From: an uncultured delta proteobacterium
GTDB taxonomy: Bacteria > Myxococcota_A > Polyangia > Polyangiales > Polyangiaceae
Direction of reading: 5' to 3'
DNA length: 64,000 nt
Assembly (NCBI GenBank): GCA_963696385.1
Contig: CAVOKF010000007.1
Coordinates: 160,001 to 224,000, forward strand
Each line of letters starts with the position of its first letter. Within the stretch, counting starts at the first letter, position 1. The notes below the pieces were generated by a model. That model did not search any database, was not told the origin of the DNA, and saw only the letters and a program-made list of their open reading frames with translations. Both the position numbers and the translations under genes were made by a program. Below are positions 3,547 through 31,105 of this stretch, piece by piece.

Positions 3547-5634
3547 TCACCGAGACGTGCGGAGCGGGCACACGCCCCCCGATTTGCGGTACTCGCGCTG
3601 CACGGCCGCCACAAGGTGCCCGTCGGCCATCGGCGTCCGCTCGCCGAACGCGAGCACCTGAGCGTGGAGTACCGCGTTGCGGATCTGCCCCCCGGTTAGC
3701 TGACATCGGCTGGCAACCTCCCGAAGCAGAGGCAGCGACGCGGCGTGAGCGGGCGGCAGGTGCGTCTGCCAAAGCCGAAACCGCTCGGCGACGTCCGGTG
3801 CGTGGAAGTCGACGACGACGTCCATCCGCCGTTGGAACGCGGTATCGATGTGGTCGCCGGCGTTCGTGGTGACCACGACGATTCCCTCGAACGTCTCCAG
3901 GCGCTGCAAGAGGAAGTTCGTCTCGAGGTTGGCGTAGCGGTCCGTCGAACTCTGCACCCCCGTGCGGCGCGCGAGCAGCGCGTCCCCCTCATCGAGAAGA
4001 AGCACGACGTCGAGCTCCTCGGCGAGTTCGAACACGCGCCCGAGGTTCTTCTCGGTCTCTCCGATGTATTTGTTGACGACCGACGAGACGTCGAGTCGAT
4101 AAAGATCCTTGCCGAGTGTCGAAGCGAGGATTCTGGCCGCGAACGTCTTTCCTGTGCCGCTCGGGCCCTGAAAGAGAACGCGAAGGCCGCCGCCGACCTT
4201 CGATCCGAAGGCAGCGCCGAGGTTCTGGCCGAGCTCTTCGCGAGCGCGACAGCGGACCGTAAGCTGATCGAGCTCGCCGCGCGTCTCCGCGCTGACCGAC
4301 AGGTCCCCCCAATCGCCTCCGACATCGAGCCGCGACGCCAGCGTCTCGAGCGCCTGGCGGTGCAGAGACCGGGCGGCCAAGCGGACATCCGCAACTGTGA
4401 CGGGGGGGTCCGTCACGGGGGGCGATAGGGCACCCCTCGAGCGCTCCGCCACGCCGGGAGCGGCGCCCGCCGGTCGGCGCGCCAGGAGTGCGTACGACCG
4501 AGCCATGCGGGCCACCGTCCGAAGGTTGCCGCTCGCCATTCGAAACGCCGTAGCAAGATCGTCGACCGACTCGGCCTGCGCCGGCAGCACCGCGCGCCAG
4601 TGTTCGCGCCGCTCGGCGGGGCTCGGCAGGTCCAGCGTGATCGCAATCGCTCGCTCGACGGCGGTGCCCGTCACGCCCCCCTGTCGCCCCGTCACGACGA
4701 ATATGGGACCGGCGTACGCGCCCGGTCGCTCCAGGTCCACCGACTCTCCGGGCGCGAGGTCCAAGACGACAACCGGCACCGCACCCAGCAGCGTGCAGAG
4801 CGACCCGGCGGTGCGAAGCCGCCTCTCCTCGGGCTTGCCGATCGAGTCGATCTCGAGGACCCCGGCGCAGAGCGCGCAGGCGAGGGCACCGGCGACCGTG
4901 CGTCGGCCGTTGTGTCGTGGGCCCCGGACGATGACGCCCGCGACCTCGCTCGCGGCCAGGAGCTCCGGCAAGCGTTCGATAAGCTCTCGAGCCGCGGGCG
5001 CCAGGACGAGCGCGTCGAGCGACGTGAGCGACGAGGCCGACCGGTACCGAGCCCACGGCAGCGGCGTCTCCGATGCCTCGCCGCGCATCGCGTCCCAGAT
5101 CGGCGCCGCGACTTGCAGGCCCCACTGAGCGCGCGCTGCGTCCAGGTTCGACGTCGTGACCAGCCCGAGTTCGCCGAGCCTGCGAAGGGCCGCGCGCACG
5201 CCCGGAGTTCCGCGACGGGCCGCCCAGTCGTGGAGCAGCCCCGCCGTCGGGCGCTGCTGGCCCGCGATGCCGTGGAGCGCCTCGAAGACGAATCCGAAGC
5301 GAGCGTCCTCGTCGGCGAGGCCGATCATCGCGAGCAGGACAAGGTCGTCGATCTCCAGACCCGCTGCGCGACGGAGGTTGGCGATCGGCAACGGAACAGA
5401 GGCCCACGCCTCGAAGATCGCGATCGCCGAGAGGCAGTCGTCCCGCGTCGCGAGGCCGCTCCGGGAAAGATCCGCCGCGTAGCCCGAGAGAAAGGCGAAC
5501 TGGCGCTCGACGAGATCGCGAGAGCCGATCGTCGCGTCGAGGTGCAGAAGCAGAGAGTGAACGGCCCCGAGGAAGAAGAGGCGGAAGTGCTCTTCGGGAA
5601 GGGATACGGAAGTGGGTTTAGGCAAAACGTTCAC
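3547..5634 (-). CDS. eCIS AAA+ ATPase (Afp15/Pvc15-like)
   Basis: Walker A GPSGTGKT, Walker B LLLDEGD, KYIGETEKNL and RYANLETNFLLQRLE; degenerate first AAA domain (GPRHNGRRT). Confidence 0.92.
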   Translation of the reverse strand: MNVLPKPTSVSLPEEHFRLFFLGAVHSLLLHLDATIGSRDLVERQFAFLSGYAADLSRSGLATRDDCLSAIAIFEAWASVPLPIANLRRAAGLEIDDLVLLAMIGLADEDARFGFVFEALHGIAGQQRPTAGLLHDWAARRGTPGVRAALRRLGELGLVTTSNLDAARAQWGLQVAAPIWDAMRGEASETPLPWARYRSASSLTSLDALVLAPAARELIERLPELLAASEVAGVIVRGPRHNGRRTVAGALACALCAGVLEIDSIGKPEERRLRTAGSLCTLLGAVPVVVLDLAPGESVDLERPGAYAGPIFVVTGRQGGVTGTAVERAIAITLDLPSPAERREHWRAVLPAQAESVDDLATAFRMASGNLRTVARMARSYALLARRPAGAAPGVAERSRGALSPPVTDPPVTVADVRLAARSLHRQALETLASRLDVGGDWGDLSVSAETRGELDQLTVRCRAREELGQNLGAAFGSKVGGGLRVLFQGPSGTGKTFAARILASTLGKDLYRLDVSSVVNKYIGETEKNLGRVFELAEELDVVLLLDEGDALLARRTGVQSSTDRYANLETNFLLQRLETFEGIVVVTTNAGDHIDTAFQRRMDVVVDFHAPDVAERFRLWQTHLPPAHAASLPLLREVASRCQLTGGQIRNAVLHAQVLAFGERTPMADGHLVAAVQREYRKSGGVCPLRTSR

Positions 5635-7616
5635 AGTCCAAGGTCCGTGTGAGGCAGCTTGCCGTTAAAGACCAGCGCCGCAGCCGAGACATTGGAAGTG
5701 CCGTGGAGCAGATGGCTTGTTCGCGAAAGCAACAAAGCATCCACGACAACTTCTCTCGCGCCAAGCCCATACCCGAAATGGGTAGGGCGGCCGTCGTGGG
5801 ATCGACGAGCCGATGTGTGGATCACCCTGTCGCCGTAGGTTGTCTTCATTCGATCGAGAAAGCGCCCGCAGTCAGTTGCGACGAAGACCCGAAGCTCAGG
5901 TCGCGTCGAGATCTGAGCGTCTACCAAAGCCTTGTAGCGGTCGAACGAAGGAGGTATGGCCTCTCCGATTTTGTCGGTGCCCCGGTAGTGGACTCCAATC
6001 ACCGCGCGACCCGCGAACTCGCGCGCAAAGTAGTCGTCCACCTGCGACCGCACCTCTCGGCGCGGATGAATGTAGCGCTCGACAAGGCTCGCAGAAATCT
6101 CACGTTGTCGATTGTTTATGCGCCCGCCATACCCGATGTCCTCCGAAAGGTAGTCGGCGCGCACGACCGCTCGGTCCGCTAGCTTCCGTTGCAGCGTGGG
6201 CGCGTCGAGCGCCTCCAGTGCGACGGGATCCGGATAAATGTCTTCGATGCCGAGACCAAAGACGGGGAGGAATGAATACTCCCATGCGTTTCGAGCGCCA
6301 TTTTGTCCAGCGTCGTCCCAGTAACAAACGTGTCGGTTTAGGTAAACCACCGGGATCAACCCATCGCGCTCCGCCAACTGGAGGTGGCCAAGGACCTGAA
6401 AAAACATGGAAAACATGCCGCAGCCCGGCCGAGCCGCGCTAACCAGAACGCAAGCGTGGCTATTGGCGGGACCCTCCGGATGCGGCGCTTGGCGCTCGCG
6501 GCCCGAGGACTCCCCGGCTCGTGACAGGCGCTTGGCCACCAGCATCACTTGCGTCGGAAAGGTCACCCGATCGCCTGCGGCGCCGTGCAGGGAGAACACC
6601 TCAAATGAGGTGTTGGCAGCAGTAGGCAACGGAATGATCGCTGTCCGATGTCCTAATGAAGCAAGTTGCCGGATCATAGCCTGGCCTCCGTCCCACTCGG
6701 TGCCGCACAGGACGAAGAGCGTTCCTGAGGTCCGAAACTCGACCACAACAGGCGAGACTCGCGACGCCACGACCTGCGTGAACCACTTTCCCAGTAGAGG
6801 GCCCGGGACGGCTCGGAACGGCCGAAGGGTGTTGCAGTGGGAAGAGACGCCAGGGAGCAAGCGCTCGATCAAATACCCCATGGTCTCGCTAAAGGTCACC
6901 TCAGCGCAGGCATCGGCACCGAGCTCGGACGTAGGACGTGGGGGAGAAGTCGCGATATAGTCCTGAATGAAACGCGCTTCGACCTCGCGTACGGGTCCGG
7001 TCAATCGCCGGCCCTCGTCATGCCGCACGCCGCTTAGGTGCAGGTGGTGCATTCGCACCGATCGCGAGGGGTTCTCCAGCGCTAGGCCAGCAGCACCGGC
7101 CTCGTAAGCGAGGCGGTTCTCACAACCCGGCAAGCCGAGATGCCAATCGCTCGGGAAGCTTGGAAGCGGCGTCTGGAAGATCCAAGCGTCCTGGCTCCAT
7201 GGGTGCTCGAAGAAGACCGCGCTCCCGTCGGACTGAACATCCCAGCGTGAAAGGCACAGAAGCTTCCCCCCGAGGTTGAACCCCTCGAGCAACGCAAGCG
7301 TGTGATCGAAGTAGATGTCATTGTTGGCAAGGATCACTCTTCGGTCCGGAAGCCACCGGTTCGCGTGCGCGAAAAGATCGTGATAGGTGAGCCGCCGTCC
7401 ATGGTGCACGAGCCGTGCTTTGGGGTCGCGGAGCACCGGGTAGGCCTTCACGTCGACAGGCTCCTCTAGAAACACGTGCACCTCTGCGATGTGCTCGGTC
7501 GCAAGGTTGCGCCGCAGGCAATCCACGAACTCCTCCGTACGTGCGGCGGATCGGTCCGGATAGAAACCAACCAGCAGGGCAAACTCAAAAAAGGGCATGC
7601 GTTGCCCACTTCCCAT
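5631..7616 (-). CDS. Multi-domain glycosyltransferase: N-terminal GT-A-like domain plus C-terminal NodZ/GT23-like fucosyltransferase
   Basis: N-terminal ILANNDIYFD, LSRW, SQDAWIF, GCENR. C-terminal IGVHYRGTDK, VFVATD, DALLLSRT...GTSNVS. Stop codon overlaps the ATPase GTG start. Confidence 0.75.
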   Translation of the reverse strand: MGSGQRMPFFEFALLVGFYPDRSAARTEEFVDCLRRNLATEHIAEVHVFLEEPVDVKAYPVLRDPKARLVHHGRRLTYHDLFAHANRWLPDRRVILANNDIYFDHTLALLEGFNLGGKLLCLSRWDVQSDGSAVFFEHPWSQDAWIFQTPLPSFPSDWHLGLPGCENRLAYEAGAAGLALENPSRSVRMHHLHLSGVRHDEGRRLTGPVREVEARFIQDYIATSPPRPTSELGADACAEVTFSETMGYLIERLLPGVSSHCNTLRPFRAVPGPLLGKWFTQVVASRVSPVVVEFRTSGTLFVLCGTEWDGGQAMIRQLASLGHRTAIIPLPTAANTSFEVFSLHGAAGDRVTFPTQVMLVAKRLSRAGESSGRERQAPHPEGPANSHACVLVSAARPGCGMFSMFFQVLGHLQLAERDGLIPVVYLNRHVCYWDDAGQNGARNAWEYSFLPVFGLGIEDIYPDPVALEALDAPTLQRKLADRAVVRADYLSEDIGYGGRINNRQREISASLVERYIHPRREVRSQVDDYFAREFAGRAVIGVHYRGTDKIGEAIPPSFDRYKALVDAQISTRPELRVFVATDCGRFLDRMKTTYGDRVIHTSARRSHDGRPTHFGYGLGAREVVVDALLLSRTSHLLHGTSNVSAAALVFNGKLPHTDLGL

Positions 7617-10822: not shown

Positions 10823-13180
10823 TCAAGCCCCGTTTCCGAGGATGGTACGCCTCCAGGCCGGGTAGACGTTCTTGCCCGCGCCGTTGAAGTGAAGCACCTT
10901 CGCCGGACGGCCGCGCCACGTCGCGCCCTGCCGCCCTCCGAATGCACATGAGATCGCCGGGTCGATGTGAAGTTGCGCGTTGTACGCGCTGTCGAGGGGC
11001 GTGATCGCGCGGGCGCGCGCCAGAGCGATGTTTAGGGCGGCCTTCGTTCGCCACCAGACGTCGCGCCGCGCCGTGACCCAGTCGCGCACGAAAGGCGCGT
11101 CCCGGAGTGTCTCGTCCACCGAGGCGAGCGCCTCGAAGTCCGCGACGAACACGCCGTCGTTCACGACGGTCGGCTCGTCGTCCGTGCCCGGATACGGGGC
11201 GAGCAGCCGATCGGTCTCCGCGGCTGTGGCGAGATAAACGGTTCGCAATCCCTGCCGCAAGTTCGTCACGGGAGTCCGCGTTGCCTCGGGCCCGATGAGC
11301 ACCTGCCCCGCCGGCAGCGCCGCGTGCATCTCGAAGAGCGGAGCGAGCGTATCGAGGACGAGCAAGTCGGCGTCCATACACAGGTATTGCTTCGCTTCGA
11401 CGGCGTGCGTAATCGAGTAAAGCGCGCTCTTGAGCCATGGCCCCGCGCCGCGCACGCTGCCGCACCGCAAGACGGCCGCGCGGTGCCGCGTGGCGATCGC
11501 CTCGCAGCGCGGTGAATGGCCCTCGACGAACACGACCCGCGGCACCTCGGCGATGCCGCCGAAGCGATCGAGCGACGTCAGCGCTCCGTCGAGGTACTCG
11601 ACGCACGACTCGCCGCCGACGAGAGCCACGCACCGCTCGAACCTCAAGGGCGGCGCCGGGCGCACGAACCCCGTGCTGCCCAGGCAATCGATGAGGGACT
11701 GCTCGCGCATGGGCGCTGCTGTGGCAACGGACAAGGCTTGGACGGGCGCGGCAGGGGCCGCCGAAGCCTCGGCAAGGATTGCTCGGTAACGCTGAATCAT
11801 GTCCCCCGGCATGGCCGCGGGTGGCTCGATCCGGGACCACCCGTCGCCCAGAAAAGACCCCGTTTCGAACCGCCACGCGTTCCGACCGTGGCGTATGTAT
11901 ACGAACGTCCCCTCATTGCGGAGCCGTTCGAGGCGTGCCCCGGATCGGAGCATCCCTGTCAACAGCATGGCGTCTTCGGCGATGTTCACGTCCAGGTAGC
12001 GAAGCCCGGCCCCCAGGAGCGACTTGCGATAGGCGAGAGTGCCTCCGTGCACGTTCCCGACAAACATCCGCCTGTGAAGATCGGCGCTGATGGTCCAGAA
12101 ACTCCCGTCCGTCAGGTTCCAGACGTAGCGGTTCTCCATGCCGGTCACGTCCGCACGCCCCGACGCGATGGGCTCGACTTGGACGCGGAGCCGCTCGGAG
12201 CCGAACCAGTCGTCGTCGTCCCAGTGGACGACGACGACGCCACGGGCCTCGGAGCAAGCCAGGTTACGCTTCGTGCCGATCGTAGCTCCTCGCGGCGCGC
12301 GGAAGTAGCGAATGCGCGCGTCGCCCCGGCAGAGATCCTCGACCGCGTCATCTCCGCTGTCGACGACGACGAGCTCTGCGGGCGCGTAATCCTGCGCCTG
12401 AAAATGCTCCACCGCGAGGCTCACATACGCACGGCGGTTGGCCGTCGGCATGATGCAGCTCGCCAAGGGCCGTCCGGGCTGCGGCGCGCTCCGAACCTCG
12501 GGACGAGCGAAATCCGCCCAGTCTGCACCGAGGATCTCGCGGATCCTCTCGATCGGCAGCGGGCGCCACGCCGGACCGCTCGCCACCTTGGGCGTGACGT
12601 TCGCGGGGTGAATACGACCGACGTGAAAGTTTCCGTCGGGCAGCACCACGATGTGTTGCCGGGATCGCGACGCGGCGAACCGGGTATCTTCGCCCACGTC
12701 ACAGTCCGGGAAGGGATCCTTCGCCCACGCCGCACGCCGGTACATCATCGAGCTGCCCCCGACCCAGGGGGCCCCGCCCATGTACACGAACTCCCAGGCG
12801 CGCCCCTCCTCGGGGTTGCAGAAGAGAAGTCGCGTGATCCCACAGAGGTCCGCCGTGCTCGCGAGCAACGCTTGCGCCTGGACTTGGAGCCGATCGGGCG
12901 CGTGCCAGTCGTCGTCGTCCCAGTGTGCGACGATCTCGCCGCGCGCGCGCTCGCACGCGAGGTTGCGCTTCTTTCCGATGCTGGCGCGAGTGTCGAGACG
13001 CACGTAGACGATCTGCGGATCGTCCGGAATAAGGTCTCGCACGCAATCCGAGCCGTCGTCGACGACGATGAGCTCCTTGTCCGGCCAGCCCTGCCGACGA
13101 AAGTGATCGATCGCCGTCGGGACAAACCGGCGGCGATTGAACGTCGGCATGATGCAGGAGACAACGGAGGCAGAATCCAT
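10823..13180 (-). CDS. Triple-domain glycosyltransferase GT2-GT2-GT8-like
   Basis: Two copies of SCIMPTxNRR...VVD...G.KRNLAC...HWDDDDW; C-terminal YLCMDADLLV, VNDGVFV, YN, KVLHFNG. Confidence 0.85.
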   Translation of the reverse strand: MDSASVVSCIMPTFNRRRFVPTAIDHFRRQGWPDKELIVVDDGSDCVRDLIPDDPQIVYVRLDTRASIGKKRNLACERARGEIVAHWDDDDWHAPDRLQVQAQALLASTADLCGITRLLFCNPEEGRAWEFVYMGGAPWVGGSSMMYRRAAWAKDPFPDCDVGEDTRFAASRSRQHIVVLPDGNFHVGRIHPANVTPKVASGPAWRPLPIERIREILGADWADFARPEVRSAPQPGRPLASCIMPTANRRAYVSLAVEHFQAQDYAPAELVVVDSGDDAVEDLCRGDARIRYFRAPRGATIGTKRNLACSEARGVVVVHWDDDDWFGSERLRVQVEPIASGRADVTGMENRYVWNLTDGSFWTISADLHRRMFVGNVHGGTLAYRKSLLGAGLRYLDVNIAEDAMLLTGMLRSGARLERLRNEGTFVYIRHGRNAWRFETGSFLGDGWSRIEPPAAMPGDMIQRYRAILAEASAAPAAPVQALSVATAAPMREQSLIDCLGSTGFVRPAPPLRFERCVALVGGESCVEYLDGALTSLDRFGGIAEVPRVVFVEGHSPRCEAIATRHRAAVLRCGSVRGAGPWLKSALYSITHAVEAKQYLCMDADLLVLDTLAPLFEMHAALPAGQVLIGPEATRTPVTNLRQGLRTVYLATAAETDRLLAPYPGTDDEPTVVNDGVFVADFEALASVDETLRDAPFVRDWVTARRDVWWRTKAALNIALARARAITPLDSAYNAQLHIDPAISCAFGGRQGATWRGRPAKVLHFNGAGKNVYPAWRRTILGNGA

Positions 13181-13195: not shown

Positions 13196-15565
13196 TCAGC
13201 GCGAGCACCCGCGCGCCTTGCGGAGGGCCAAGAGCAATGAGAGCGCCACGAGACCGGCCCCCGCCGCCAACGTGCTCACTGCGCCACTGCGCCCAGGAAC
13301 ATCGCAGTTGCAATTGGTGGGTTTGGGCGCAGACACGACCTGGTCCTGCGCGGTCACTTGTGTTTGGACAGACACCGCGCCGTTGCCCGGGATGGTTACC
13401 TGGTACGAAGCGAAATCAGCCTGGGCGCCATTAGCCTGTTTCGGAATCGAGTAAGCCGCCGCAGAAATCGGTTTGAGCTGAGCCGGCTGGATGCTGACTG
13501 GCGCAACCACAAAGTCTCTGGGGGCTTCCGTTGTGACTGGCGCAGCCCCGGCGGGTAGGCCCGCTATCGCCACGTTCTGCCCAAGCACGGGCAGGCTGGC
13601 GATGGTGGTCACTCCCGGCGTGATGCCGGTCTTCTGCCAGTTGACCGCGATAGTCTCGGTCGGCGACGACGGCGCGGTAATGATTGCGTGGCGGGCGATG
13701 AGATAATAATCCCCCCACGGGACGTAAACTTCTTTCTTGACGCCGTGTAACGGCACGGTTTTCCCGGTATCCAACCATCCGACGACATGCGTCTTCATTG
13801 TCTCGTATGGGTTCGCAGCACCCGGCTGCACGCTGGTCACGCGCACGATTTGCGGCGGCGGCTGCAGATATTGAGGCAGGAAGGCCGTGTCGAGTGCCGC
13901 AGGGAAGGTTTGCGTGAAGCCTGTCAGCTCGAACACGTGATTTCCGGCACCAAGCCCGTTCGCGCTCACGATCGCGGAGTAAGTCGCACTGGACGCGGCG
14001 GTCCACCACGCGTTGACTTGAGCGCTCTGCGCAATCACCGGCACCGCTCCGCTGTCGCCGAAAATGTCCGCCCCCAGACAATAATGGCCTACGCTCGCTC
14101 CGGCGGCGATATCGTTGCAGGCCGTTTGCTCGGACAACTCGAAGTTGTACGCCGCCGTCGCGCTGCTGGGGCTTGCGGCGCTCCCTGCGTTCAGCAATAG
14201 CGGCGGGGAAGGATTCTGATTTGCAGAGTTTGAAACCGGGGCGTTGCTTGGGCTCGGCAGTACCCCGGTGCCACTCTGCAATTGCGCCCACTCGTTGCCG
14301 ACGATGCCGAAATTCGAGATCCGAAAACGCACGCTGACCCCCGGCACCGATGAGCTATATGTATTGTGAACCGTGGCCTGAAAGGTGTTGACGGCACTCG
14401 GATCGGTAACGGTTGTGGGAAGCGACGAGCATGCACTCCCAGTAGGAAACTTCGGGTACAATAACGGTGCCCCGTTCTGCCCGACCACATTGTTGATCAC
14501 GATGTCGTTTTGCGTGATGTAGAGCCCCCCTCCGCACGTGGTGCTGAGGTTCACAGCCGTGCCGATGTTGAGAGTCCCCCAGGATGAACCTGTCGATGGA
14601 AATATTTGTTCGATGTTCGTCGCGCTGTTACTCCCGAGAATTGGATCACTCTGTGGCCATTCGAGCTCCGTCACGCCAGTGCCACTGCCCGGGGGCGCTT
14701 GGTCCTGCCCCAAATCTGTCATAATACCAAAATAGAGCTGCAAATTTCCGGACGCCGGGGCGGTCCAGCTCGGTGTGCCCGATCCATTGATCGGAATGGC
14801 CATTTCGAACGACCATAGATATGTGCCGATCGCGTACGCGAAGCCTCCACCGTTGCTTGATGGATTGGTTGATGAATTGAAGACCCATGACGTACTCGGA
14901 ATCGCGGAGTTGATGCTCCAAGTGCCAGGGTAACTATTGAAAGCTGCTGAGGTGAAAGTCGCCGTCTGATACGAAGCATATTGCATATTCTGGCAGTTCA
15001 CGCCGGAGGGACATTGATTGCCACTTAGCGTTCCTTGGCCAATCGGATTTTGAAGAAACAGCGCATTTGATGGCGGTGCGGCAGATTGCGCTTGACCCTG
15101 AACGAACGGCTGAATAACGAACGCGAGGCCCGACGGGCTTCCGGAATTGCTTACTCCGATCACAATTGTATTGTATAGAGCGGGCGGTAGCCCTGCCGAT
15201 GAGACAATTCCGCCGACGTAAAGAATTGTCGAGGACGGGTTGGTGCCGAGAAGGAGCCAACCCAAGGGTGTCGTCATTCCGCCAGCGCCCAGCGGAATGC
15301 GCGTCCCTGTACCCCACCCGGGGTCGGGTACATTTGTCGCATCGTAGGGGGCAGCGCTCGGAAGACCGCTACCCTGTATAGTGGCGGCGACCCATCCGAA
15401 TGCGGGATCCGGGTCGATGACCCCGTCGATGAAAGGCGGCTGTTGGTGGACAGTTTGAGCGACCGGTGCGCACGTCGTCTGTGCGCGCGCCAAGGCGGGA
15501 GTAAGGACCACGCCGAGACTCAGGCAAAATGCTAACAGTCGCAACTGCATGTTATTGGACTGCAT
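13196..15565 (-). CDS. Secreted cell-surface protein with MYXO-CTERM-like anchor and putative CBM9/DOMON-like domain
   Basis: Signal peptide ending ALARA-Q; PPFIDGVID...W and WSFEMAIP; C-terminus NCNCDVPG + hydrophobic helix + RKAR. Visibly lower GC than neighbours. Confidence 0.7.
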   Translation of the reverse strand: MQSNNMQLRLLAFCLSLGVVLTPALARAQTTCAPVAQTVHQQPPFIDGVIDPDPAFGWVAATIQGSGLPSAAPYDATNVPDPGWGTGTRIPLGAGGMTTPLGWLLLGTNPSSTILYVGGIVSSAGLPPALYNTIVIGVSNSGSPSGLAFVIQPFVQGQAQSAAPPSNALFLQNPIGQGTLSGNQCPSGVNCQNMQYASYQTATFTSAAFNSYPGTWSINSAIPSTSWVFNSSTNPSSNGGGFAYAIGTYLWSFEMAIPINGSGTPSWTAPASGNLQLYFGIMTDLGQDQAPPGSGTGVTELEWPQSDPILGSNSATNIEQIFPSTGSSWGTLNIGTAVNLSTTCGGGLYITQNDIVINNVVGQNGAPLLYPKFPTGSACSSLPTTVTDPSAVNTFQATVHNTYSSSVPGVSVRFRISNFGIVGNEWAQLQSGTGVLPSPSNAPVSNSANQNPSPPLLLNAGSAASPSSATAAYNFELSEQTACNDIAAGASVGHYCLGADIFGDSGAVPVIAQSAQVNAWWTAASSATYSAIVSANGLGAGNHVFELTGFTQTFPAALDTAFLPQYLQPPPQIVRVTSVQPGAANPYETMKTHVVGWLDTGKTVPLHGVKKEVYVPWGDYYLIARHAIITAPSSPTETIAVNWQKTGITPGVTTIASLPVLGQNVAIAGLPAGAAPVTTEAPRDFVVAPVSIQPAQLKPISAAAYSIPKQANGAQADFASYQVTIPGNGAVSVQTQVTAQDQVVSAPKPTNCNCDVPGRSGAVSTLAAGAGLVALSLLLALRKARGCSR

Positions 15566-15616
15566 ATGATGTCTTCCTTTCGAGCGTAATTAAAATGGCA
15601 AATATCGTGCGATCGC

Positions 15617-16834
15617 CTAGGGCGCGATGTTCACGGTGATGGACACCGGAGGATCGCCTGCGTCGTCCGTGATCTGCACGTTCAACGTGCTTGGTCCGGC
15701 GCCTGACTGCGCCTGCACGCGGACCGCTTGGGTTAGGGGACCATAGCCCGATCCGCTTGCGGGGAGATTGGCTGAAGTGACCGACTGCGGAGCCAGGGCG
15801 TAGCTCGTTGCGCCTGAAGCGGCCGCGGGAAAAGTGTAGTTACTGCTGGCAAGCACGAATGTGGTCGTGTAGGTCGCCGCCTTGAAGAACGTCACGTCGA
15901 GAGTGACAATCGTTCCGCCTGCAGCCGCAGATATATCGACGGCGCCGGTCGAATCGACCTGGGTGGCGAGTGATACGACGGCGACGGCCAGGGGGGGGAT
16001 GGATTGGCCAATGGTGATCGGCAGTATCAAAGGGGGGGCCGGCGTGACCGTCCCGCCCGGTGTCACCTCTTGAGCATTCAGCGTGAGTGTGGCTGTACCG
16101 CCCGACACGTTCGGGGGAGTCACCGTCACCGTCAGAGATGTCATCGATCCGGAAGTGTTTGACCCGGGAGCGGGCACGGCAAAAGTTAACTGGCTTCCGC
16201 CCGAGACCTGCTGGCCGCCTTGGATGGCGGCGGTCCATGCGGAGTTCGACATCGTCGCGGTCACCAGGTAATTCCCCGCCTCAAACACGTGAGCCACCAT
16301 TGTGAATCCGAACGCGTAGGGAACCGCGGGATGAATGAGATCGTCCGATGGAGTCGCAGCGGGCGGCCGGACGGAATAACTCAGGTTCAGGGAGCCGCTC
16401 GGATAGACTACTTGGGGGGCGACCGTGAGAAGCCAGACCGCACTGCTTCCAGCCGCATTCGTAATCGTCATCAGCATGGCCGTTCCGGTCGCGGAGAGCT
16501 GCACGCTGGGCGGAAACTGCGGGATCGCGAAGATCAACGTCCCAGGTCCGCTGCCCGGCTCGAAGACACCGACCTGGTAGCCGCCGATGGTCACAGTGTT
16601 GGCGGACGCCGGTGTGGTGAAATTCGCACCGGTCACCGTCACCGTGTCGAGAATATTAAGCAATCCGGTAGGCGTCACGGAATTGATGACGAGCTGACTC
16701 GCCGCGGCTGCGCTCTGACCCGCAAGCAGGGTCACCCTTCGGTCGAGGTCATTGATCGCCGCTACCAGCCTGTCGATGTACGACGCCTGAATGAGATCTC
16801 CGGGGTTCACATTCGCAATGTTGTAGGTTCCCAT
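15617..16834 (-). CDS. IPT/TIG (Ig-like) domain eCIS accessory protein, putative fibre component
   Basis: N-terminal VNPGDLIQAS plus short coiled coil; INSVTP...VTVTGANF...NTVTIGG IPT signature; Thr/Ser-rich beta domains. Confidence 0.6.
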   Translation of the reverse strand: MGTYNIANVNPGDLIQASYIDRLVAAINDLDRRVTLLAGQSAAAASQLVINSVTPTGLLNILDTVTVTGANFTTPASANTVTIGGYQVGVFEPGSGPGTLIFAIPQFPPSVQLSATGTAMLMTITNAAGSSAVWLLTVAPQVVYPSGSLNLSYSVRPPAATPSDDLIHPAVPYAFGFTMVAHVFEAGNYLVTATMSNSAWTAAIQGGQQVSGGSQLTFAVPAPGSNTSGSMTSLTVTVTPPNVSGGTATLTLNAQEVTPGGTVTPAPPLILPITIGQSIPPLAVAVVSLATQVDSTGAVDISAAAGGTIVTLDVTFFKAATYTTTFVLASSNYTFPAAASGATSYALAPQSVTSANLPASGSGYGPLTQAVRVQAQSGAGPSTLNVQITDDAGDPPVSITVNIAP

Positions 16835-16872
16835 GCGCGGCTCTCCTCATCGACTGACTGGACTCGTCGTTC

Positions 16873-19155
16873 TCATTCGAAATGAAAGGCCAAAAATCGC
16901 CCCGCCGCGGGCACCCACCCGGGGTCGCGATCGAGGCCGGCGAGGCGCACCTCGATCGGCAGATCGGCTAGCGCCATGTGGACATCCACGTGCGTGTCCG
17001 TCGTGCGGACCCGTGCCGGGAGGCGCAAGAGCAGGCGGGCGCTCGCATCCGGGTCGCTCGCGCCGAGGGCCCTGTGCACGCGCGCTCGAAGAAAGCCCGC
17101 GAGGGAGTCCAACCAGCCGGTCCCTTCGGGGCTCCCGGCCCCTGCCTCCAACACGTCCGCTGCGCCGTAAGGCGCGAGCTCGCGTTCCCGCTGAGCGGCG
17201 ATGTCCCCTTCGCGCGCCACATCGACCGCGATGAACCCCACGGGATGCAGGATCCGCAAGCGCCCGTCCGTCGCATGCCACGTCCACCCATGGCGGTCCG
17301 GAAAGGGCTTGAGCCATGCCGGGTTCACCCGCCACGCATCGGGCCACGCTTCCCTTGCCTCTTGGGGACCGGCCAGCTCGTCGAGCAGGCCCCAGATGGC
17401 GTCGGCGGCATCGGGCTCGTCACCGAGGAGCCTACGCGCAAGCTCTGCGAGGACCCTCCAGGGCGACGCGCTCAAGGTGCGAGACCGCGGACGGGTGAAG
17501 TCGCCGTAGATCTCGAGGACCAGCAGCGCGTTGATCAGAAAGAGGACGCCGCCATGACGTGTCGAGATCCAGCGATCGAGCGCCGGGACGCCCCCGGCGT
17601 GCTCTCGCGCGGCGGGCGCCGTCTGGACCCCGGCGGAAGGGGACGGGGCGCCGACCGGCGGCACGCCGGGGCGAACGGCCGGCGGCGCGATCGATCGATC
17701 CACGTCCGCCGGGGTCGCCGTGCGATGGAGCGTCGCCGGGACGTCGCGTCCGCGATCCGAAGGCCAAGCGACTGGATGTTGAGCCTCCGCCGGATCGCCT
17801 CGAGCGTCCCGGACTTGCGTCACGGGCCCCGGGGTCGTGACCGTCGTGGGGGATTCCGCGGCGGAGGCCGCCGCCGGGGCGCCTGCGGCGTGCCCAGCCT
17901 CGGTAGGCCCACCCTCGGTCGGTCCGACCTCGGTCGCGAGAACCGCCGTTCGGGTGGCCGCGGAAGATGGATCCGTCCGTTCTGGACTGCGCGACGGGGG
18001 CGCAGCCGGATCGCGGGCCACGTGGACGACGGGCACGTCGGAGGCGGCGTCGTTCGAATCACGCCCGTCTTGTGCCGCTTGCGAAGGGTGTCGGACTGGC
18101 TGGGCCGTTCCCTGGGTCCGTGCGACGGCCCCATGTGCCAGGTCACCGATTGGGATCGACGGCTCCATCCGGTCTCGCGCGTGCGAAGCTCTCTTCGCCG
18201 ATGCAGCGACGGATGACCCGGCGACGGCGTCTTCGCCTCGCCCGACGGATCCCGCGGGGCCATCGAGCTCCGTCCGGACCGCCGAAAGCGCTTCGGGTCC
18301 GCTCGCGGCCCATGCCTGGATCGCCGCGACGACGTCGCGATCGCGCGCAACCGAGGGGGCCCGGGCGAGAGCGAGGCTCAGGACGACCAGCGCGCGCGCC
18401 GGCGCGTGCAGGTCCGCGCTTGCGGCCTCGGGCGCCCAGCGGGCCCATTTCGCTCGCGCCGCCGATCGATTCGCGTCTCTCTCGGCGCGCGATGGCGTCG
18501 TCTCGAGGGGCGCCGCGCCGGTTGACTCGCGTGGGGCCAGATGGATCCCGAACGACTCCGCGACGCTCGCGACGAGATCGCGCGCCTCTACCTCGTCGAG
18601 CGCGGCGGCAAACGCCACAAGCGCGCCGCGATCGGCGAGCCGACGCGCTGCCGCGGGCACGTAGCGCGGCTCGAGTCTCCATTGCGCGGGCGCGACACGG
18701 ATCGTGGCCGCGGGCCATCGGACCAGGTGGCGCCACCACCAGAGGGCGCCGATCTCCCCTCGCGTCCAGTCCCTTGCCAGGCAAGCGAGAAGCTCGGATC
18801 GGTCGTGAAAGATCACGGCCGTCGCGCCCGCGGGCACGCTCCCCTCGAGGGGCCGCGCCGCGGACCGCGCCTCGCGCTCGAGCGCCCGCGCAAGCGCCGC
18901 TTGCCACGCGCTCGACACCCCGGCCTGCCGGTCGAGCCGAAGCGCCTCCGGCAGCGGGTCACGCATCGATCGGATGCAAAGGATGGCGGTGGGCGGTAGA
19001 CCCGCGACGTGAAGCGCCTCACCGGACAGCACGCTCTCGAGCCGCGCCCGCGCGGTGTTCGCGTCGAGGCGACTCGCCGATCGGACGCGCAGCCGCCCGA
19101 CGATCGATCGATCGTCGAGTGCCCCCACGGGGGTGGCTGCTGACCTGCCGTTCAT
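16873..19155 (-). CDS. eCIS-associated protein, possibly tape-measure-like (Afp14-like)
   Basis: C-terminal GGVLFLINALL and RLAGLDRDPGWVP...FHF; long low-complexity Ala/Pro middle; operon position. Function tentative. Confidence 0.45.
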   Translation of the reverse strand: MNGRSAATPVGALDDRSIVGRLRVRSASRLDANTARARLESVLSGEALHVAGLPPTAILCIRSMRDPLPEALRLDRQAGVSSAWQAALARALEREARSAARPLEGSVPAGATAVIFHDRSELLACLARDWTRGEIGALWWWRHLVRWPAATIRVAPAQWRLEPRYVPAAARRLADRGALVAFAAALDEVEARDLVASVAESFGIHLAPRESTGAAPLETTPSRAERDANRSAARAKWARWAPEAASADLHAPARALVVLSLALARAPSVARDRDVVAAIQAWAASGPEALSAVRTELDGPAGSVGRGEDAVAGSSVAASAKRASHARDRMEPSIPIGDLAHGAVARTQGTAQPVRHPSQAAQDGRDSNDAASDVPVVHVARDPAAPPSRSPERTDPSSAATRTAVLATEVGPTEGGPTEAGHAAGAPAAASAAESPTTVTTPGPVTQVRDARGDPAEAQHPVAWPSDRGRDVPATLHRTATPADVDRSIAPPAVRPGVPPVGAPSPSAGVQTAPAAREHAGGVPALDRWISTRHGGVLFLINALLVLEIYGDFTRPRSRTLSASPWRVLAELARRLLGDEPDAADAIWGLLDELAGPQEAREAWPDAWRVNPAWLKPFPDRHGWTWHATDGRLRILHPVGFIAVDVAREGDIAAQRERELAPYGAADVLEAGAGSPEGTGWLDSLAGFLRARVHRALGASDPDASARLLLRLPARVRTTDTHVDVHMALADLPIEVRLAGLDRDPGWVPAAGRFLAFHFE

Positions 19156-19165
19156 GCCATTTCTC

Positions 19166-20503
19166 TCATGACCACGCCGCGTAATCGAAATACGCGGCGT
19201 TGAAGTGCGATTCGCCGAAGTAGGGCATCTGCCCCGTGACGAAGAAGAGAACCGACTGCACCGGCGCAGGCGGGGTCGCCGCCGGGGGCGACGCCACGAG
19301 CGGGGCGGACGCCTGCATGTTCTGGCGGGTCTGAAAGAGCCAGATCATCTCGCCGCTCGACAGGTCAATCAGCGGATAGTCGAACGAGGCGCGGATCATC
19401 GCCTGGGCACGCGCCCCCTCGATGGCGATCGGGGCCTGGGTCATCGTGCCCGCTGCATTCACCACGCACCCCTGCCGAACCGGCAGCCCCTGGAAGAACG
19501 TGGCCAGGACGAATCCGGCCGGGAACGCCGACGAATAGATCGGCAAAAGGCCCAGAGGGGGAAGGTACTGAAACACGCTGGTCGCCACGACCGTGCCCGG
19601 CGTTGCCGCAATCAGCGACTGGACGTGATCCTGAAACTGCAAGAGGACAGCTTCGCCGAGAGCCGTGTAGCGGTCGCCCATGGGAAGCGTCGTGTCGTCG
19701 GTGTTGTCGGCCCGACCGACGCGGCGGCGCGCCGACCACATGTCCACGAAGGTGATGCCCGTGCCCGGGCTCCAGCCGACGACGGCCAGAGGCACTTGCG
19801 CATCGGTCAGGGTCGTCGGGCGGAGGCTCTCGATCAGGCCTTGCGGCGCGGGCGTGCCCTGCGGAAGCGACCCGCCAAACGGATTGACGAGCGGATCGGA
19901 GCCGAACCCGAAACATTGGGCGGCGACGAGGTTGCGCAGTTGCGCCGTATTGGCCAGATCGCTCGCGGAGACCGGGAGCTGCAAGAGCGCGAACTGGACG
20001 CCCTCGACGATGTATTTCGCGTTGCACTTGTCCGTCCCGTCCGAGAGCCCCAAAACCGGCGCCTGCCCGGTCGTCCCCGCGGCGGGGGCGATCGTCAGCA
20101 GATACACCCCGGCGGCCGTCAGGTAGGCGCCCGGCGCCGCCGGGGCGCATGGCGCAAACGGGGTCACGGTGGTTGCATTCGCGGCGGGGGCCGTTGGAGC
20201 GTAGAGGCCCACCACCGTGGTGTTGCCGAGCCGGATGGCGTCCCCGGCACGGTTGAAGGCCAGGCCGGCCCGCACCGTGACGGTGGGGACTGCGGAAGAG
20301 GGCGCAGGCAGCACCGCGGAGACCTCCAGGCCCTGGACCACTCCATCGCCGACGGCCCGTCCGAGGCGCGCGTCCGCGCGACGGTTCGCGGCTTGCTCTG
20401 TGGTCAGATCCTCGCCGCTCAGCAGCCGCCCGTTGAAGAATTTGATCGACTTGAGCGCCGTATCGAAGACGGGCGTCGTCACCGGGGTCACGGTCGCGGT
20501 CAT
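19166..20503 (-). CDS. eCIS accessory protein (fibre/baseplate-attached-type N-terminal domain)
   Basis: IKFFNGRLLSGEDL..EQ...GDGVVQGLEV...VRAGLAFN..G. Confidence 0.55.
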   Translation of the reverse strand: MTATVTPVTTPVFDTALKSIKFFNGRLLSGEDLTTEQAANRRADARLGRAVGDGVVQGLEVSAVLPAPSSAVPTVTVRAGLAFNRAGDAIRLGNTTVVGLYAPTAPAANATTVTPFAPCAPAAPGAYLTAAGVYLLTIAPAAGTTGQAPVLGLSDGTDKCNAKYIVEGVQFALLQLPVSASDLANTAQLRNLVAAQCFGFGSDPLVNPFGGSLPQGTPAPQGLIESLRPTTLTDAQVPLAVVGWSPGTGITFVDMWSARRRVGRADNTDDTTLPMGDRYTALGEAVLLQFQDHVQSLIAATPGTVVATSVFQYLPPLGLLPIYSSAFPAGFVLATFFQGLPVRQGCVVNAAGTMTQAPIAIEGARAQAMIRASFDYPLIDLSSGEMIWLFQTRQNMQASAPLVASPPAATPPAPVQSVLFFVTGQMPYFGESHFNAAYFDYAAWS

Positions 20504-20521
20504 GGCCTTGCCTCCCCTGCC

Positions 20522-21883
20522 TCAGGACCCGACCAGGGCGTTGATTTCAATCAAGAGGTTGAGGCCCGCGACGTTCGTCGGCGTCGGCGCGGCGCCATTC
20601 ACGAAGACCGCGATCGTGCAACCGGGGGGCTGGGTCGAAATCGAAGTCACGACCAGCGTGACCACGTGCGGAAGGGCCACCGGGGAGGTGGCCACGAAGG
20701 GAAGAGCCTTGATGATGTATTGCGTTCCGATCGCCGGATGGTCCGGAAAGCTGACATAAACCTCGCCCGTGGCACCCCACCACGCCTGAAGGCCCGACCC
20801 GGCGGCGGCGGCCGGCGAACCCGATTGGATCGGCACGAGTCCGGCGGCCACGAGTCGGTAGCGCGCGAAGCTCGCCAGGCTCGCAATCCACGCCTCCTTG
20901 AGCATGTCGAGCGGAAGCAGAAACGGCCGTGTGGTGTCGACTCGAACCGCGGTGGTGGAGTCGAGCGCCCAGAGGCCGGTCAACGATTGCGCCACCGGCA
21001 GATCGATCGTCGCAAGCAGAATGCCCGTTTCCCGGGGTACGGCGTCGGCGGAGGATGGGCCGGCGAGCAAGCTGCGCAGGGTCGTCGCGTAAAGCTGCAA
21101 GGCGGCGCGATAGACCTCCGGCGCTGTGGCGGTGCCGATCGTGATCCCGGAAGGCGGCGCCGGCGGGAGCGAGAGCGGGACTGCGGGGGGCGAAGAGGAG
21201 ACACCGAACGACGCCTTCATGGCTGCGATGACGGCGGCGGGTGAGCTGCCCGACCCCACGGCCGCGGGCACCTGGGCGAGCCACCGGATGACCGCCCACA
21301 TGCCCGGCTCCTCGGTCGGGGCGGGGGGCGTGAGACACAAATCGAGGCTGAAGCCGTCGGTCACCCGCGACGGGGCCACGGCCTCGTTCGCCGTGCGGCA
21401 CGGCTCGCCCGGGATTGGGACCTGGTCGGTCAGGCAGGGTTTGTAACGAAGGACTGTGTAGAGGGTGACTGTGCCCCGCCCCGGGGCCGCGGGCGGGGAT
21501 GCGGACGTCGACACGGGAGGCGATCCGGGTGGCGATCCGACGCGGAGGCTCGTCGCGACGGTCGTCTGGTTGTTCTTGACCCAGTCGTCCAGTACGGCGC
21601 ACTGGGCGCTCGGCACGCGGACGATCTGCCCGTGCGGAGTCAGCGCGACCCCGGGCTGCACGACGAGCTCGGTCGTTCCGCTCGCAGGCTGCACGGTCAC
21701 GTCGAGCCCGCGCACCGTCCCGGCGCCGATGAGGTCGCGCGCCGCCCATTGGTCGCGCGCCGCGTGATAGACGAATTCTTGCTGGAAGTCGTCCACCCCG
21801 AGAACCATCCCGAGCGTGTAGTTAACGTGCTTGCTCGGGTTGAGGGGCGCGGGGGTCGGAGTGACTGTCGAGAAGGCCGTCAT
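20522..21883 (-). CDS. eCIS accessory protein, paralog of 19166-20503
   Basis: VNYTLGMVLGVDDFQQE...GTVRGLDV...VQPGVAL..HG; four SPP motifs. Confidence 0.55.
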   Translation of the reverse strand: MTAFSTVTPTPAPLNPSKHVNYTLGMVLGVDDFQQEFVYHAARDQWAARDLIGAGTVRGLDVTVQPASGTTELVVQPGVALTPHGQIVRVPSAQCAVLDDWVKNNQTTVATSLRVGSPPGSPPVSTSASPPAAPGRGTVTLYTVLRYKPCLTDQVPIPGEPCRTANEAVAPSRVTDGFSLDLCLTPPAPTEEPGMWAVIRWLAQVPAAVGSGSSPAAVIAAMKASFGVSSSPPAVPLSLPPAPPSGITIGTATAPEVYRAALQLYATTLRSLLAGPSSADAVPRETGILLATIDLPVAQSLTGLWALDSTTAVRVDTTRPFLLPLDMLKEAWIASLASFARYRLVAAGLVPIQSGSPAAAAGSGLQAWWGATGEVYVSFPDHPAIGTQYIIKALPFVATSPVALPHVVTLVVTSISTQPPGCTIAVFVNGAAPTPTNVAGLNLLIEINALVGS

Positions 21884-21892
21884 CGTCGTCTC

Positions 21893-24658: not shown

Positions 24659-24659
24659 G

Positions 24660-26974: not shown

Positions 26975-26981
26975 CGGGCCC

Positions 26982-27371: not shown

Positions 27372-27374
27372 GGC

Positions 27375-29806: not shown

Positions 29807-29828
29807 CGCGAGGCGCCTTTCGCCGTCT

Positions 29829-30899: not shown

Positions 30900-30922
30900 G
30901 GGATCTTCGCTTTCGCCCGCGA

Positions 30923-31099: not shown

Positions 31100-31105
31100 C
31101 GTCTC

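Follow-up and report, generated by a model that had tools for sequence, protein, structure and literature searches.

Among the closest described systems are phages that glycosylate their own virions: Freeman et al. reportedly described, in 2023, virion glycosylation by phage-encoded glycosyltransferases (GTs) in mycobacteriophages Che8, Corndog, and Myrna. Follow-up notes include PMC11256854. For extracellular contractile injection systems (eCISs), Jank et al. are said to have described in 2015 a glycosylating toxin, Afp18, from Yersinia ruckeri. Among papers retrieved by full-text searches for contractile injection systems together with glycosyltransferases or glycosylation, no title or abstract opening presents a particle-glycosylation module. 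Here, we analyze P0001, a 785-residue protein encoded within an eCIS operon in a 64,000-nucleotide stretch of DNA from an uncultured delta proteobacterium of the Polyangiaceae (contig CAVOKF010000007.1, positions 160,001 to 224,000; referred to as the window). We put at roughly 60% the probability that P0001, most likely together with a second protein, P0002, forms a module that works in the cytoplasm and attaches sugars to the eCIS particle at short tags of the form SP[P/L]-x-SP[P/L]. Glycosylation of virions or particles is a known kind of process; new are its proposed occurrence in an eCIS and the candidate sequon.

Geller et al. 2021 (PMC8213781) treat DUF4157 as an eCIS core or toxin-associated domain, and glycosyltransferases go unmentioned in the main text of that study. 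Its supplementary file 4 shows a depletion of Glycos_transf_2 among eCIS operons (odds ratio, 0.28; 14 of 567,454), and file 6 lists, without comment, an accessory cluster of GT2 proteins from three genera of Sphingobacteriia (files 13 to 15 lay outside the search). Supplementary cluster 633 of the same survey comprises Pedobacter and Arcticibacter GT2 proteins of ∼730 residues as eCIS accessory genes. In the sections covered of Danov et al. 2024 and of the 2026 fiber catalogue (PMC12923769), such enzymes are not mentioned. Within the portion of the eCIS literature consulted, the Afp18 toxin is the sole glycosyltransferase mentioned.

P0001 is predicted to combine two GT2 domains with a GT8-like domain

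The gene and its predicted domains are as follows.

10823..13180, minus strand: P0001, three-domain glycosyltransferase (GT2a-GT2b-D3), 785 residues, ATG start (open reading frame [ORF] list, Pfam)
12476..13180, minus strand: GT2 domain a, residues ∼1-235, with invariant D41, D88-D91, and E164-D165
11741..12475, minus strand: GT2 domain b, residues ∼236-480, with invariant D274, D321-D324, and E402-D403; 40% identical to domain a
10826..11740, minus strand: D3, predicted retaining GT-A domain with a GT8-like fold, residues 481-785 (model, fold match, conserved columns)

The original prediction, made from the DNA letters and their ORFs, had described two repeated GT2 units marked by SCIMPT, KRNLAC, and HWDDDDW, neighboring genes at 15 and 12 bp, and no signal peptide. 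The motifs are all present exactly (SCIMPT at residues 8 and 241, KRNLAC at 71 and 304, HWDDDDW at 86 and 319), and the ORF list returns the same gaps, 15 bp to the upstream gene (ending at 13196) and 12 bp to the downstream gene (starting at 10810). A scan of these two gaps found no promoter-like or terminator-like site, which is weak evidence for co-transcription with the eCIS genes; the scan was at shuffle level. Hydropathy likewise agreed, revealing neither a signal peptide nor a membrane segment (maximum 19-residue Kyte-Doolittle mean, 1.31); P0001 is predicted to be a soluble protein.

Glycos_transf_2 (PF00535) matched P0001 in two stretches with a score well over the curated Pfam cutoff (E = 2e-41; 142.2 bits versus 23.3), which places the protein in GT2. 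A PF00535 match spans residues 8 to 116, and the second unit is also matched by PF13641 at residues 241 to 364. The two units share 40% identity over 168 residues (E = 1e-29) and, judged by this similarity, are paralogs. Their acidic motifs are invariant in 19 full-length P0001 homologs (46 to 76% identity), and the same homologs keep invariant acidic motifs in all three domains. We take the acidic DxD-type run and the downstream ED of the GT2 domains to be nucleotide-sugar and metal motifs.

NCBIfam yielded no equivalog for P0001. In that collection, its GT2 domains come nearest to WcaA, TuaG, PglI, and EpsD, all far below cutoff, and PDB sequence matches comprise K4CP, heparosan synthase, TarS, SpsA, and GalT1 (5hea), with K4CP at the top (E = 2.9e-12 with a profile of 19 homologs). 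These likenesses bear on an alternative in which the GTs make or modify the producer's cell-surface polysaccharide or a lipid-linked glycan, not particle sugars, and could in this way keep the eCIS receptor of sister cells hidden or tether particles. The NCBIfam likenesses are to polysaccharide enzymes, and the first four PDB matches also suit this explanation. ABC-dependent O-antigen synthesis typically employs polymerases with two GT domains that are accompanied by methyltransferase terminators and carbohydrate-binding modules. We nonetheless consider a surface glycan an unlikely product of P0001, for reasons that lie in the surrounding genes and in the tags described below.

The third unit had been called GT8-like from the motifs DADLLV (residue 603), NDGVFV (residue 674), and LHFNG (residue 763). 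D3 falls short of the Pfam GT8 profile (PF01501; E = 0.026, 14.5 bits versus a cutoff of 24.3), and it has no PDB relative by sequence, whether the single protein or a 19-row profile is the query. Conservation was assessed in an alignment of the 19 full-length homologs and in one of 23 D3 copies from related loci. D603-x-D605, N674-D-G, and F765/G767 are invariant in both; H764 is invariant in the 23-row alignment and nearly so (≥90%) in the 19-row alignment. A confident model built from the 23-copy alignment (pLDDT, 88.4; pTM, 0.88) was led in Foldseek by retaining GT-A enzymes of GT8, GT24, and GT6, the first being XXYLT1 (E = 7.8e-10), and the top group comprised XXYLT1, WbbM, UGGT, ABO transferases, LARGE1, glycogenin, and LgtC. 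In VIA-align, D3 superimposed on LgtC with Z 18.7 (root mean square deviation, 3.4 Å; 228 residues), followed by LARGE1 (Z 18.3), WbbM (Z 18.2), GlyE (5gvv; Z 17.6), and glycogenin (Z 17.5). The O-antigen enzyme WbbM is a further match of the kind expected for a surface glycan.

The D3 model thus presents an LgtC/glycogenin-type retaining GT-A fold with a DxD and a C-terminal His, which presumably play the roles that they have in that fold. Because the LgtC match reaches Z 18.7 while the Pfam GT8 score stays below cutoff, "GT8-like" holds as a statement about the predicted fold and motifs, not about Pfam membership. The Pfam assignment proposed as a check by the original prediction therefore succeeded twice for GT2 and fell under the cutoff for GT8.

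The tandem GT2 module is linked to eCIS operons across several phyla

P0001 lies within a complete eCIS operon that runs on the minus strand from 37796 to 3547, as identified by Pfam, NCBIfam, and orthologs. Sheath, gp19-type tubes, Phage_base_V spike, Baseplate_J, Tail_P2_I, AAA, and eCIS_core genes all share this strand, in accord with the claim that the gene sits inside an eCIS operon. Of 7999 candidates scored in a protein database search, 2119 were relatives of P0001 at E ≤ 0.001. Few have the three-domain form, which occurs in Myxococcota (for example, Sorangium, Pendulispora, and Pyxidicoccus) and in metagenomes; the tandem GT2 unit is frequent and is joined to other partners. Named three-domain homologs include those of Sorangium sp. 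So ce726 and Pendulispora albinea; in the Sorangium locus (L002), AAA and DUF4157 genes lie upstream.

We surveyed species genomes through the best 80 loci of 581 relatives, using as markers the window operon proteins and gene clusters derived from the loci, and counting a locus as flank-sufficient when at least 5 kb lay upstream. At least one eCIS marker was present in 53 of the 80 loci and in 48 of the 62 with sufficient flank; record titles assign the loci to Acidobacteriota (several classes), Verrucomicrobiota, Chloroflexota, Myxococcota, and Proteobacteria. An independent scan of metagenomes found a marker in 28/80 loci overall and in 22/26 flank-sufficient loci. Two layouts recurred. In the first, Afp14-like and AAA genes are followed by one or more DUF4157 toxins, an accessory GT or methyltransferase, and GT2-GT2. 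In the second (16 loci), Baseplate_J, a 700-residue protein, and a DUF6519 fiber of 1400 to 1800 residues precede the GT, which comes immediately after the fiber gene and is the last gene of the operon. In the sections covered of the 2026 fiber catalogue (PMC12923769), DUF6519 is the eBAP5 fiber-attachment domain.

Genome-wide tallies covered two bacterial orders and the window's phylum. Within the acidobacterial order of genome G401 (locus L012), the module occurs in 18/201 genomes and Pvc16_N in 64/201, the latter count including two unpublished genomes, G521 and G582. Every module genome carries Pvc16_N (18/18), compared with 46/183 of the others (Fisher P = 1.8e-10, kin not being independent). 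Module and Pvc16_N share one contig in 9/18 genomes and lie 24 to 42 kb apart on one strand in 8 of these 9, the exception being the genome of locus L006. Within the order of genome G402 (locus L034), the module occurs in 4/201 genomes and DUF6519 in 27/201; in three of the four, the module is 4 to 5 kb downstream of the fiber domain on the same strand. Within the window's own phylum, the module was found at E ≤ 1e-40 in 2/401 genomes, one of them the window's own, and at that threshold it was not found in the same-genus genome.

Across 11 loci, pairwise identities of GT2-GT2 and of the AAA ATPase were correlated (Spearman, 0.82; reached in 0/2000 permutations), and their means were nearly equal (0.55 and 0.54). 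Because the identities correlate with equal means, the module evolves like a core part of the eCIS. Taken together, eCIS linkage of the tandem GT2 module is general across several phyla and is conserved in relatives (48/62 and 22/26 flank-sufficient loci; 18/18 versus 46/183 genomes), an outcome in favor of eCIS linkage for the homolog survey that had been suggested earlier.

Some relatives reside outside eCIS loci, an observation in favor of a surface-glycan role. One (L058) is beside RmlD-like and other GT2 genes. In three Pedobacter loci (L072 to L074), one or two 440-residue GT2-GT2 genes, a tandem pair in L072, adjoin SusC/SusD and an alpha-L-rhamnosidase. The module of L006 (genome G549), consisting of GT2-GT2 and an NPCBM-D3-methyltransferase partner, is separated by 550 kb or more from both Pvc16_N genes and thus outside an eCIS; genes for an N-acetyltransferase, a nitrilase, and PqqD/transglutaminase/asparagine-synthase (lasso-peptide-like) come after it. 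Pfam analysis of 12 flank-sufficient loci lacking markers returned mostly unrelated contexts, such as glycogen phosphorylase and housekeeping genes.

SP[P/L]-x-SP[P/L] tags mark structural proteins in GT-bearing loci

Fibers encoded ahead of the GT gene contain runs such as SPPKSPLASPPVSPPSSPLTSPPSSPP. With a composition filter, tag runs were found in 12/14 GT-adjacent DUF6519 fibers, and two loose, nonrepeat S/P-rich stretches (L085 and L096) were found among 20 DUF6519 fibers from GT-negative genomes of the G402 order. This composition-window criterion was rejected because it also flagged those two GT-negative fibers, and it was replaced by the regular expression SP[PL].{1,2}SP[PL] for fiber and locus counts (spacer {0,2} for counts by protein class). 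The expression retrieved 12/14 GT-adjacent fibers and 0/20 fibers from GT-negative genomes (Fisher P = 1.7e-7). One sequence taken as a candidate acceptor tag is GSPPGSPPVSTSASPP.

Whole loci of the G401 order were then compared, with 8 module loci set against 10 controls anchored on Pvc16_N. By a strict measure (three units in 18 residues), 5/8 module loci and 0/10 controls were positive. Two-unit tags appeared in two supposed controls, G477 and G411, and both were then found to encode a multi-GT protein of 1621 or 1655 residues at the operon end. The prediction that tagged "GT-negative" loci carry another multi-GT/methyltransferase protein thus held. With G477 and G411 counted as GT-bearing, the expression matched 10/10 GT-bearing and 0/8 GT-free loci (Fisher P = 2.3e-5).

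Tag carriers comprise fib453 orthologs, the sheath, a 314- to 322-residue protein beside Pvc16_N, Pvc16_N fusions, Baseplate_J-like proteins, P2_I, and fibers. A single lineage illustrates the contrast: a Baseplate_J-like loop reads ...SSPPVSPP..., ...SPPASPP..., and ...SSSPPLGP... in GT-bearing G411, G440, and G483, and the same loop is shorter and charged in GT-free G486, G564, and G485. The Pvc16_N fusion shows the same contrast in G411 and G440, not in G483.

Tags were also tallied by protein class over the 80 loci and the window. They occurred in 12/15 DUF6519 fibers, 1/17 proteins of the comp5 class, 1/2 P2_I proteins, 0/32 DUF4157 proteins, 0/15 ATPases, 0/12 Afp14-like proteins, 1/116 GT or accessory proteins, and 2/574 other ORFs, the last two being the L061 sheath and, in L066, the ORF that immediately precedes the GT. 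The metagenome replicate gave eight tagged ORFs, all structural (6/13 fibers and 2/7 Baseplate_J-like proteins), and none among 17 DUF4157 proteins, 87 GTs, or 261 other ORFs. The tagged proteins and tags of the window are as follows.

21893-24658, minus strand: Tail_P2_I baseplate protein of the eCIS operon
24536..24553, minus strand: SPPSPP tag near the N terminus of Tail_P2_I, residues 36-41 (regular expression)
20522..21883, minus strand: fib453, CIS13-like fiber or baseplate-distal protein (NCBIfam CIS13_fam, E = 8e-10, below cutoff)
21482..21535, minus strand: tag 1 in fib453, residues 117-134, GSPPGSPPVSTSASPPAAP (regular expression)
21146..21199, minus strand: tag 2 in fib453, residues ∼229-246, SSSPPAVPLSLPPAPPSG (ortholog loop alignment)

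Orthologs of fib453 follow P2_I in related loci. At the position of tag 1, the ortholog in L001 has GSPLSPP. The loop of tag 2 reads TSPPxSP[PL]xS-PP in Pyrinomonadales-type loci, SSSPPAVPLSLPP in the window, and HSSPPATFMSSPPP in a Ktedonobacteraceae locus. Across the window's genome (G000), the tag occurs in 11/4839 ORFs of a greedy ORF set, P2_I being one of the 11, or 0.5 per 100,000 residues; the window operon has it in two proteins, fib453 (residue 117) and P2_I (residue 36), versus 0.06 expected (Poisson P = 0.0017). About 10 further G000 ORFs outside the window match SP[PL]x(0-2)SP[PL] and may be further acceptors or chance matches. A looser tag that falls outside the expression, SPPYSPSQGSPPLP, occupies residues 75 to 88 of a 571-residue operon protein (27375-29090, minus strand).

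The motif, defined post hoc, thus co-occurs with the enzymes and is confined to structural proteins: tags mark fiber, sheath, and baseplate proteins in GT-bearing loci only, and never DUF4157 toxins, a pattern new here. A role of the GTs in surface-glycan synthesis would leave this co-occurrence on particle proteins unexplained.

Companion domains, a second multi-GT protein, and P0002

Relatives of P0001 are fused to or encoded beside sugar O-methyltransferases (Methyltransf_24/CmcI and FkbM), NPCBM, extra GT2 domains, and stand-alone D3. Many relatives of ∼770 residues have a third, divergent GT2 in front, and D3 is also central in separate NPCBM-D3-Methyltransf_24/CmcI proteins of ∼670 residues encoded beside GT2-GT2 genes. 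Judged by their sequences, these shuffled GT, sugar-methyltransferase, and carbohydrate-binding domains look like a glycan-building kit and not like a toxin.

This composition bears on the possibility that P0001 is itself the eCIS payload, a glycosylating toxin injected into targets. The retaining GT-A fold class of D3 is also used by glycosylating toxins; among the matches displayed by Foldseek and VIA-align, those of D3 are GT8, GT6, and GT24 enzymes, and families beyond these are possible. An eCIS toxin with glycosyltransferase activity does exist in Afp18 of Y. ruckeri, according to the sections covered of PMC10598620. However, the first GT2 beta-strand of P0001 starts at residue 6, leaving no room for an N-terminal packing leader, and several homologs begin at the MPT of that strand. 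Relatives bring together sugar methyltransferases, NPCBM, and as many as three or four GT domains, an unusual set for a toxin. Moreover, P0001 evolves like the core ATPase, whereas the C termini of neighboring DUF4157 proteins vary (tblastn often covers only part of the window toxin). We therefore regard a payload role as very unlikely. The original prediction had offered two functions, a cytoplasmic assembly line on a protein acceptor and a GT-type effector; the former is strongly supported, on comparative grounds, by the finding of SPP-type tags only with multi-GT genes, and the latter loses ground to the missing leader, the methyltransferase and carbohydrate-binding-module fusions, and the ATPase-like rate.

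The operon-end proteins of G477 (L125:13397-18259) and G411 (L131:2805-7769), of 1621 and 1655 residues, are 47.5% identical to each other. Pfam assigns to the G477 protein a GT2 domain, Glyco_transf_7C, a DXD sugar-binding region, and a methyltransferase (Methyltransf_25); the narrow GT2 hidden Markov model built here missed this protein, which Pfam detects. Relatives of these giant proteins were found in none of the other eight control loci. On sequence grounds, the G477 type is a second, unrelated eCIS-linked multi-GT protein. A protein at L076:11574-14954 is also of this kind, the class as a whole spanning 1100 to 1655 residues, and the G477 type stands at the operon end where the HWDDDDW-type module is absent and SPP tags are present. 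In the closest genomic relative, a Polyangiaceae metagenome-assembled genome, the protein right after the three-domain GT (L001:12865-14355) resembles the methyltransferase end of the G477 type (33% identity over 151 residues).

P0002 is encoded next but one after P0001.

5631..7616, minus strand: P0002, 661 residues, probable second glycosyltransferase (subthreshold Pfam and fold matches)

Its Pfam similarities, FUT8_N_cat (E = 1.4e-5) and NodZ, are both below cutoff, and NCBIfam named no equivalog. The model is of low confidence overall (pLDDT, 59.3; pTM, 0.37), with the N-domain at 70 to 90, and tentatively comprises a GT-A/nucleotidyltransferase-like N-domain, a beta-rich middle, and a FUT8/NodZ-like C-domain. 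Foldseek matches to RmlA/ppGalNAc-T/K4CP and to FUT8/NodZ (E ∼1e-5 to 1e-4) serve as leads only, as does an Atlas match to viral "glycosyltransferase" clusters. The N-domain recurs in 14/80 related loci (tblastn E ≤ 1e-20; 16 at 1e-5), where it is alone, fused to FkbM methyltransferases, or behind GT2-GT2. Going by these model-based matches, P0002 is probably a second GT with two catalytic domains, one GT-A-like and one GT23-like.

The surrounding eCIS operon

The remaining operon features, apart from those already given, are listed below.

13196..37796, minus strand: rest of the eCIS operon upstream of P0001 (Pfam, NCBIfam, related loci)
35787-37796, minus strand: sheath
35267-35734, minus strand: tube
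32463-34796, minus strand: sheath-like protein
∼31996-32460, minus strand: tube 2
29829-32009, minus strand: VgrG-related protein
29087-29887, minus strand: spike
27375-29090, minus strand: 571-residue protein, between spike and Baseplate_J
24725-26974, minus strand: Baseplate_J
19166-20503, minus strand: fib445, CIS13-like fiber
16873-19155, minus strand: 760-residue protein in the Afp14 position
15617-16834, minus strand: TIG-domain protein
13196-15565, minus strand: secreted 789-residue protein with a signal peptide, directly upstream of P0001
7664..10810, minus strand: eCIS_core (DUF4157)-linker-Endonuclease_NS_2 protein, 1048 residues, likely payload toxin (Pfam)
3547..5634, minus strand: AAA ATPase in the Afp15/Pvc15 position (Pfam AAA, E = 1.2e-23; orthologs at 43 to 55% identity in related loci)
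38402-38995, plus strand: Pvc16_N cap gene, just beyond the sheath (Pfam)

Among the window ORFs scanned with Pfam, there is no flippase, polymerase, transporter (including ABC transporters), initiating (phospho)glycosyltransferase, ligase, or nucleotide-sugar gene; the earlier statement that flippase, polymerase, and nucleotide-sugar genes are lacking nearby therefore stands. Nor are surface-glycan genes of these kinds found among the recurrent clusters of the 80 loci, and the locus does not qualify as a polysaccharide locus, which tells against the GTs building a surface or lipid-linked glycan.

In a further alternative, the GTs might glycosylate a different protein of the locus, either the DUF4157 toxin, which would be held inactive or stabilized, or the secreted 789-residue protein. 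GT genes directly follow DUF4157 genes in many loci, and the 789-residue protein is S/T-rich, with a like-placed secreted protein in L054. The DUF4157 toxin was rejected as acceptor on the absence of tags from all 49 DUF4157 proteins of the two data sets (0/32 and 0/17). In addition, 16 loci have the GT after a fiber gene and no DUF4157 gene within the flank, and the 789-residue protein carries a signal peptide, would exit the cytoplasm unfolded, and has no counterpart in most loci. An acceptor of either kind is, in our judgment, highly improbable.

Several further features of the operon were observed. The 789-residue protein is S/T/N/G-rich and ends in a Cys-bearing hydrophobic tail with terminal basic residues, which we take to resemble a MYXO-CTERM sorting tag; the similarly positioned protein of L054 lies at 2753-5182, and most related loci have none. 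The payload candidate (7664-10810) consists of DUF4157 with HExxH, a linker of ∼750 residues, and a C-terminal Endonuclease_NS_2 exactly at the Pfam cutoff, and it is followed by GT genes, with no small immunity-like gene after it. Pvc16_N is divergent from the operon in the window and co-oriented upstream of the sheath in Pyrinomonadales-type loci of like gene order. An IS66-family transposase (1406-3010, plus strand) lies ∼0.5 kb past the ATPase end of the operon. There are hints that the eCIS-GT locus of the window is mobile, because this transposase is near, the module is not in the same-genus genome, and it is rare in the phylum sample (2/401).

Particle glycosylation as the preferred explanation

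Under the particle-glycosylation model, P0001 and P0002 would act as soluble cytoplasmic enzymes that draw on the cell's nucleotide sugars and build a short O-linked oligosaccharide on serines of the SP[P/L]-x-SP[P/L] tags. Candidate acceptor loops would be those of fib453 and P2_I in the window and, elsewhere, also those of sheath, cap, and Baseplate_J proteins, with glycosylation taking place in the cytoplasm ahead of particle release. Sequence comparison shows the identities of the domains, the integrity of the catalytic motifs, the conserved link to eCIS genes, and the joint occurrence of tags and GT genes; from these, we infer the tags as acceptors, Ser as the modified residue, the order of transfer, and the role of the glycan. 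Taking glycosylated mycobacteriophage virions as an analogy, we guess that the glycan shields or stabilizes the particle, or alters its adhesion, in soil.

Several observations weigh against this model. Its support is wholly comparative. The tag was defined post hoc, after the first data set had been seen, and G477 and G411 were moved from control to GT-bearing once their tags had been seen. Related genomes are not independent, so the P values overstate the associations, and the correlation between GT2-GT2 and the ATPase could reflect shared organismal history. Two GT-adjacent fibers (L041 and L044) have no tag, and G558 has only a weak match; 6/13 metagenome fibers are tagged, several fibers being cut by contig ends; and the window sheath has an S/T-rich stretch at the corresponding loop in place of a tag. 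Fourteen of 62 genome loci and 4/26 metagenome loci with sufficient flank show no eCIS genes; among these are L078, L028, and the closest three-domain metagenome relative (L138), which follows an RND efflux pump on a contig that ends at the GT. Finally, soluble GTs can also act on lipid-linked acceptors.

On balance, the effector and surface-polysaccharide explanations appear less likely than particle glycosylation. A broader proposal, which we advance tentatively as a real possibility, is that a widespread cytoplasmic O-glycosylation system with a short, portable sequon, SP[P/L]-x-SP[P/L], coats the eCIS sheath, baseplate, and fibers, that at least two unrelated multi-GT sets serve the tag, and that the glycan sets stability, stealth, or adhesion.

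eCIS particles are under development as vehicles for protein delivery, and it is assumed that their surface consists of bare protein. If particle glycosylation is correct, about a quarter of eCIS-bearing genomes in one soil order (18/64) encode particle-glycosylating enzymes, and particle targeting, stability, and immune visibility may depend on an overlooked glycan. Phage virion glycosylation would then extend to tail-like machines. The compact pairing of sequon and enzymes would also be of use for cytoplasmic glyco-engineering, as tag and enzymes could move to other proteins. Particle glycosylation would further explain a gene class counted as depleted background in large eCIS surveys, as in the supplementary tabulation of Glycos_transf_2 by Geller et al. 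2021 (odds ratio, 0.28).

Comparison with known systems

Afp18 of Y. ruckeri, as portrayed in the sections covered of PMC10598620, resembles P0001 in being a glycosyltransferase whose gene occupies the toxin end of an eCIS operon. In contrast, the GT of Afp18 is one domain of a very large toxin whose target is host RhoA, whereas P0001 is leaderless, has three GT domains, and travels with particle tags.

K4CP chondroitin polymerase, heparosan synthase, LARGE1, and WbbM likewise place tandem GT-A domains in one chain. These enzymes polymerize long chains on glycan or lipid primers; the likeness of P0001 is at the domain level only, and a polymerase activity does not follow from it.

The cytoplasmic system that glycosylates serine-rich repeat adhesins (GtfA/B, GalT1, and members of GT8, among them GlyE of Streptococcus pneumoniae) provides a parallel, in that soluble enzymes of GT2 and GT8 act one after another to lengthen O-glycans on Ser-rich tags of a protein. 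Two of its enzymes recur among the matches of P0001: GlyE (5gvv) matches D3 with Z 17.6, and GalT1 (5hea) is a GT2 sequence match. Unlike the adhesin system, the eCIS module has neither a GtfA/B-type GT4 initiator nor an accessory Sec system, and its tags are short, while the adhesins have hundreds of repeats.

A064R of chlorovirus PBCV-1 is reported to be one soluble three-domain GT/methyltransferase polypeptide that builds a capsid glycan without a host membrane pathway. P0001 shares with it successive glycan-building domains in one chain, and relatives of P0001 have a sugar methyltransferase. The PBCV-1 glycan differs in being N-linked and in having a eukaryotic host, and the likeness is one of general organization.

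The mycobacteriophages differ from the eCIS case in several respects. An eCIS is headless, the module has up to five GT domains in two proteins, and it occurs across several phyla. Its candidate acceptors, spread over a number of different proteins, are internal loops with the short tag SP[P/L]-x-SP[P/L], whereas those of the phages are C-terminal extensions. The organization is nevertheless alike: in the mycobacteriophages, soluble GT2-type enzymes encoded beside structural genes are proposed or reported to attach O-glycans to capsid and tail-tube proteins while these are still in the cytoplasm, ahead of release.

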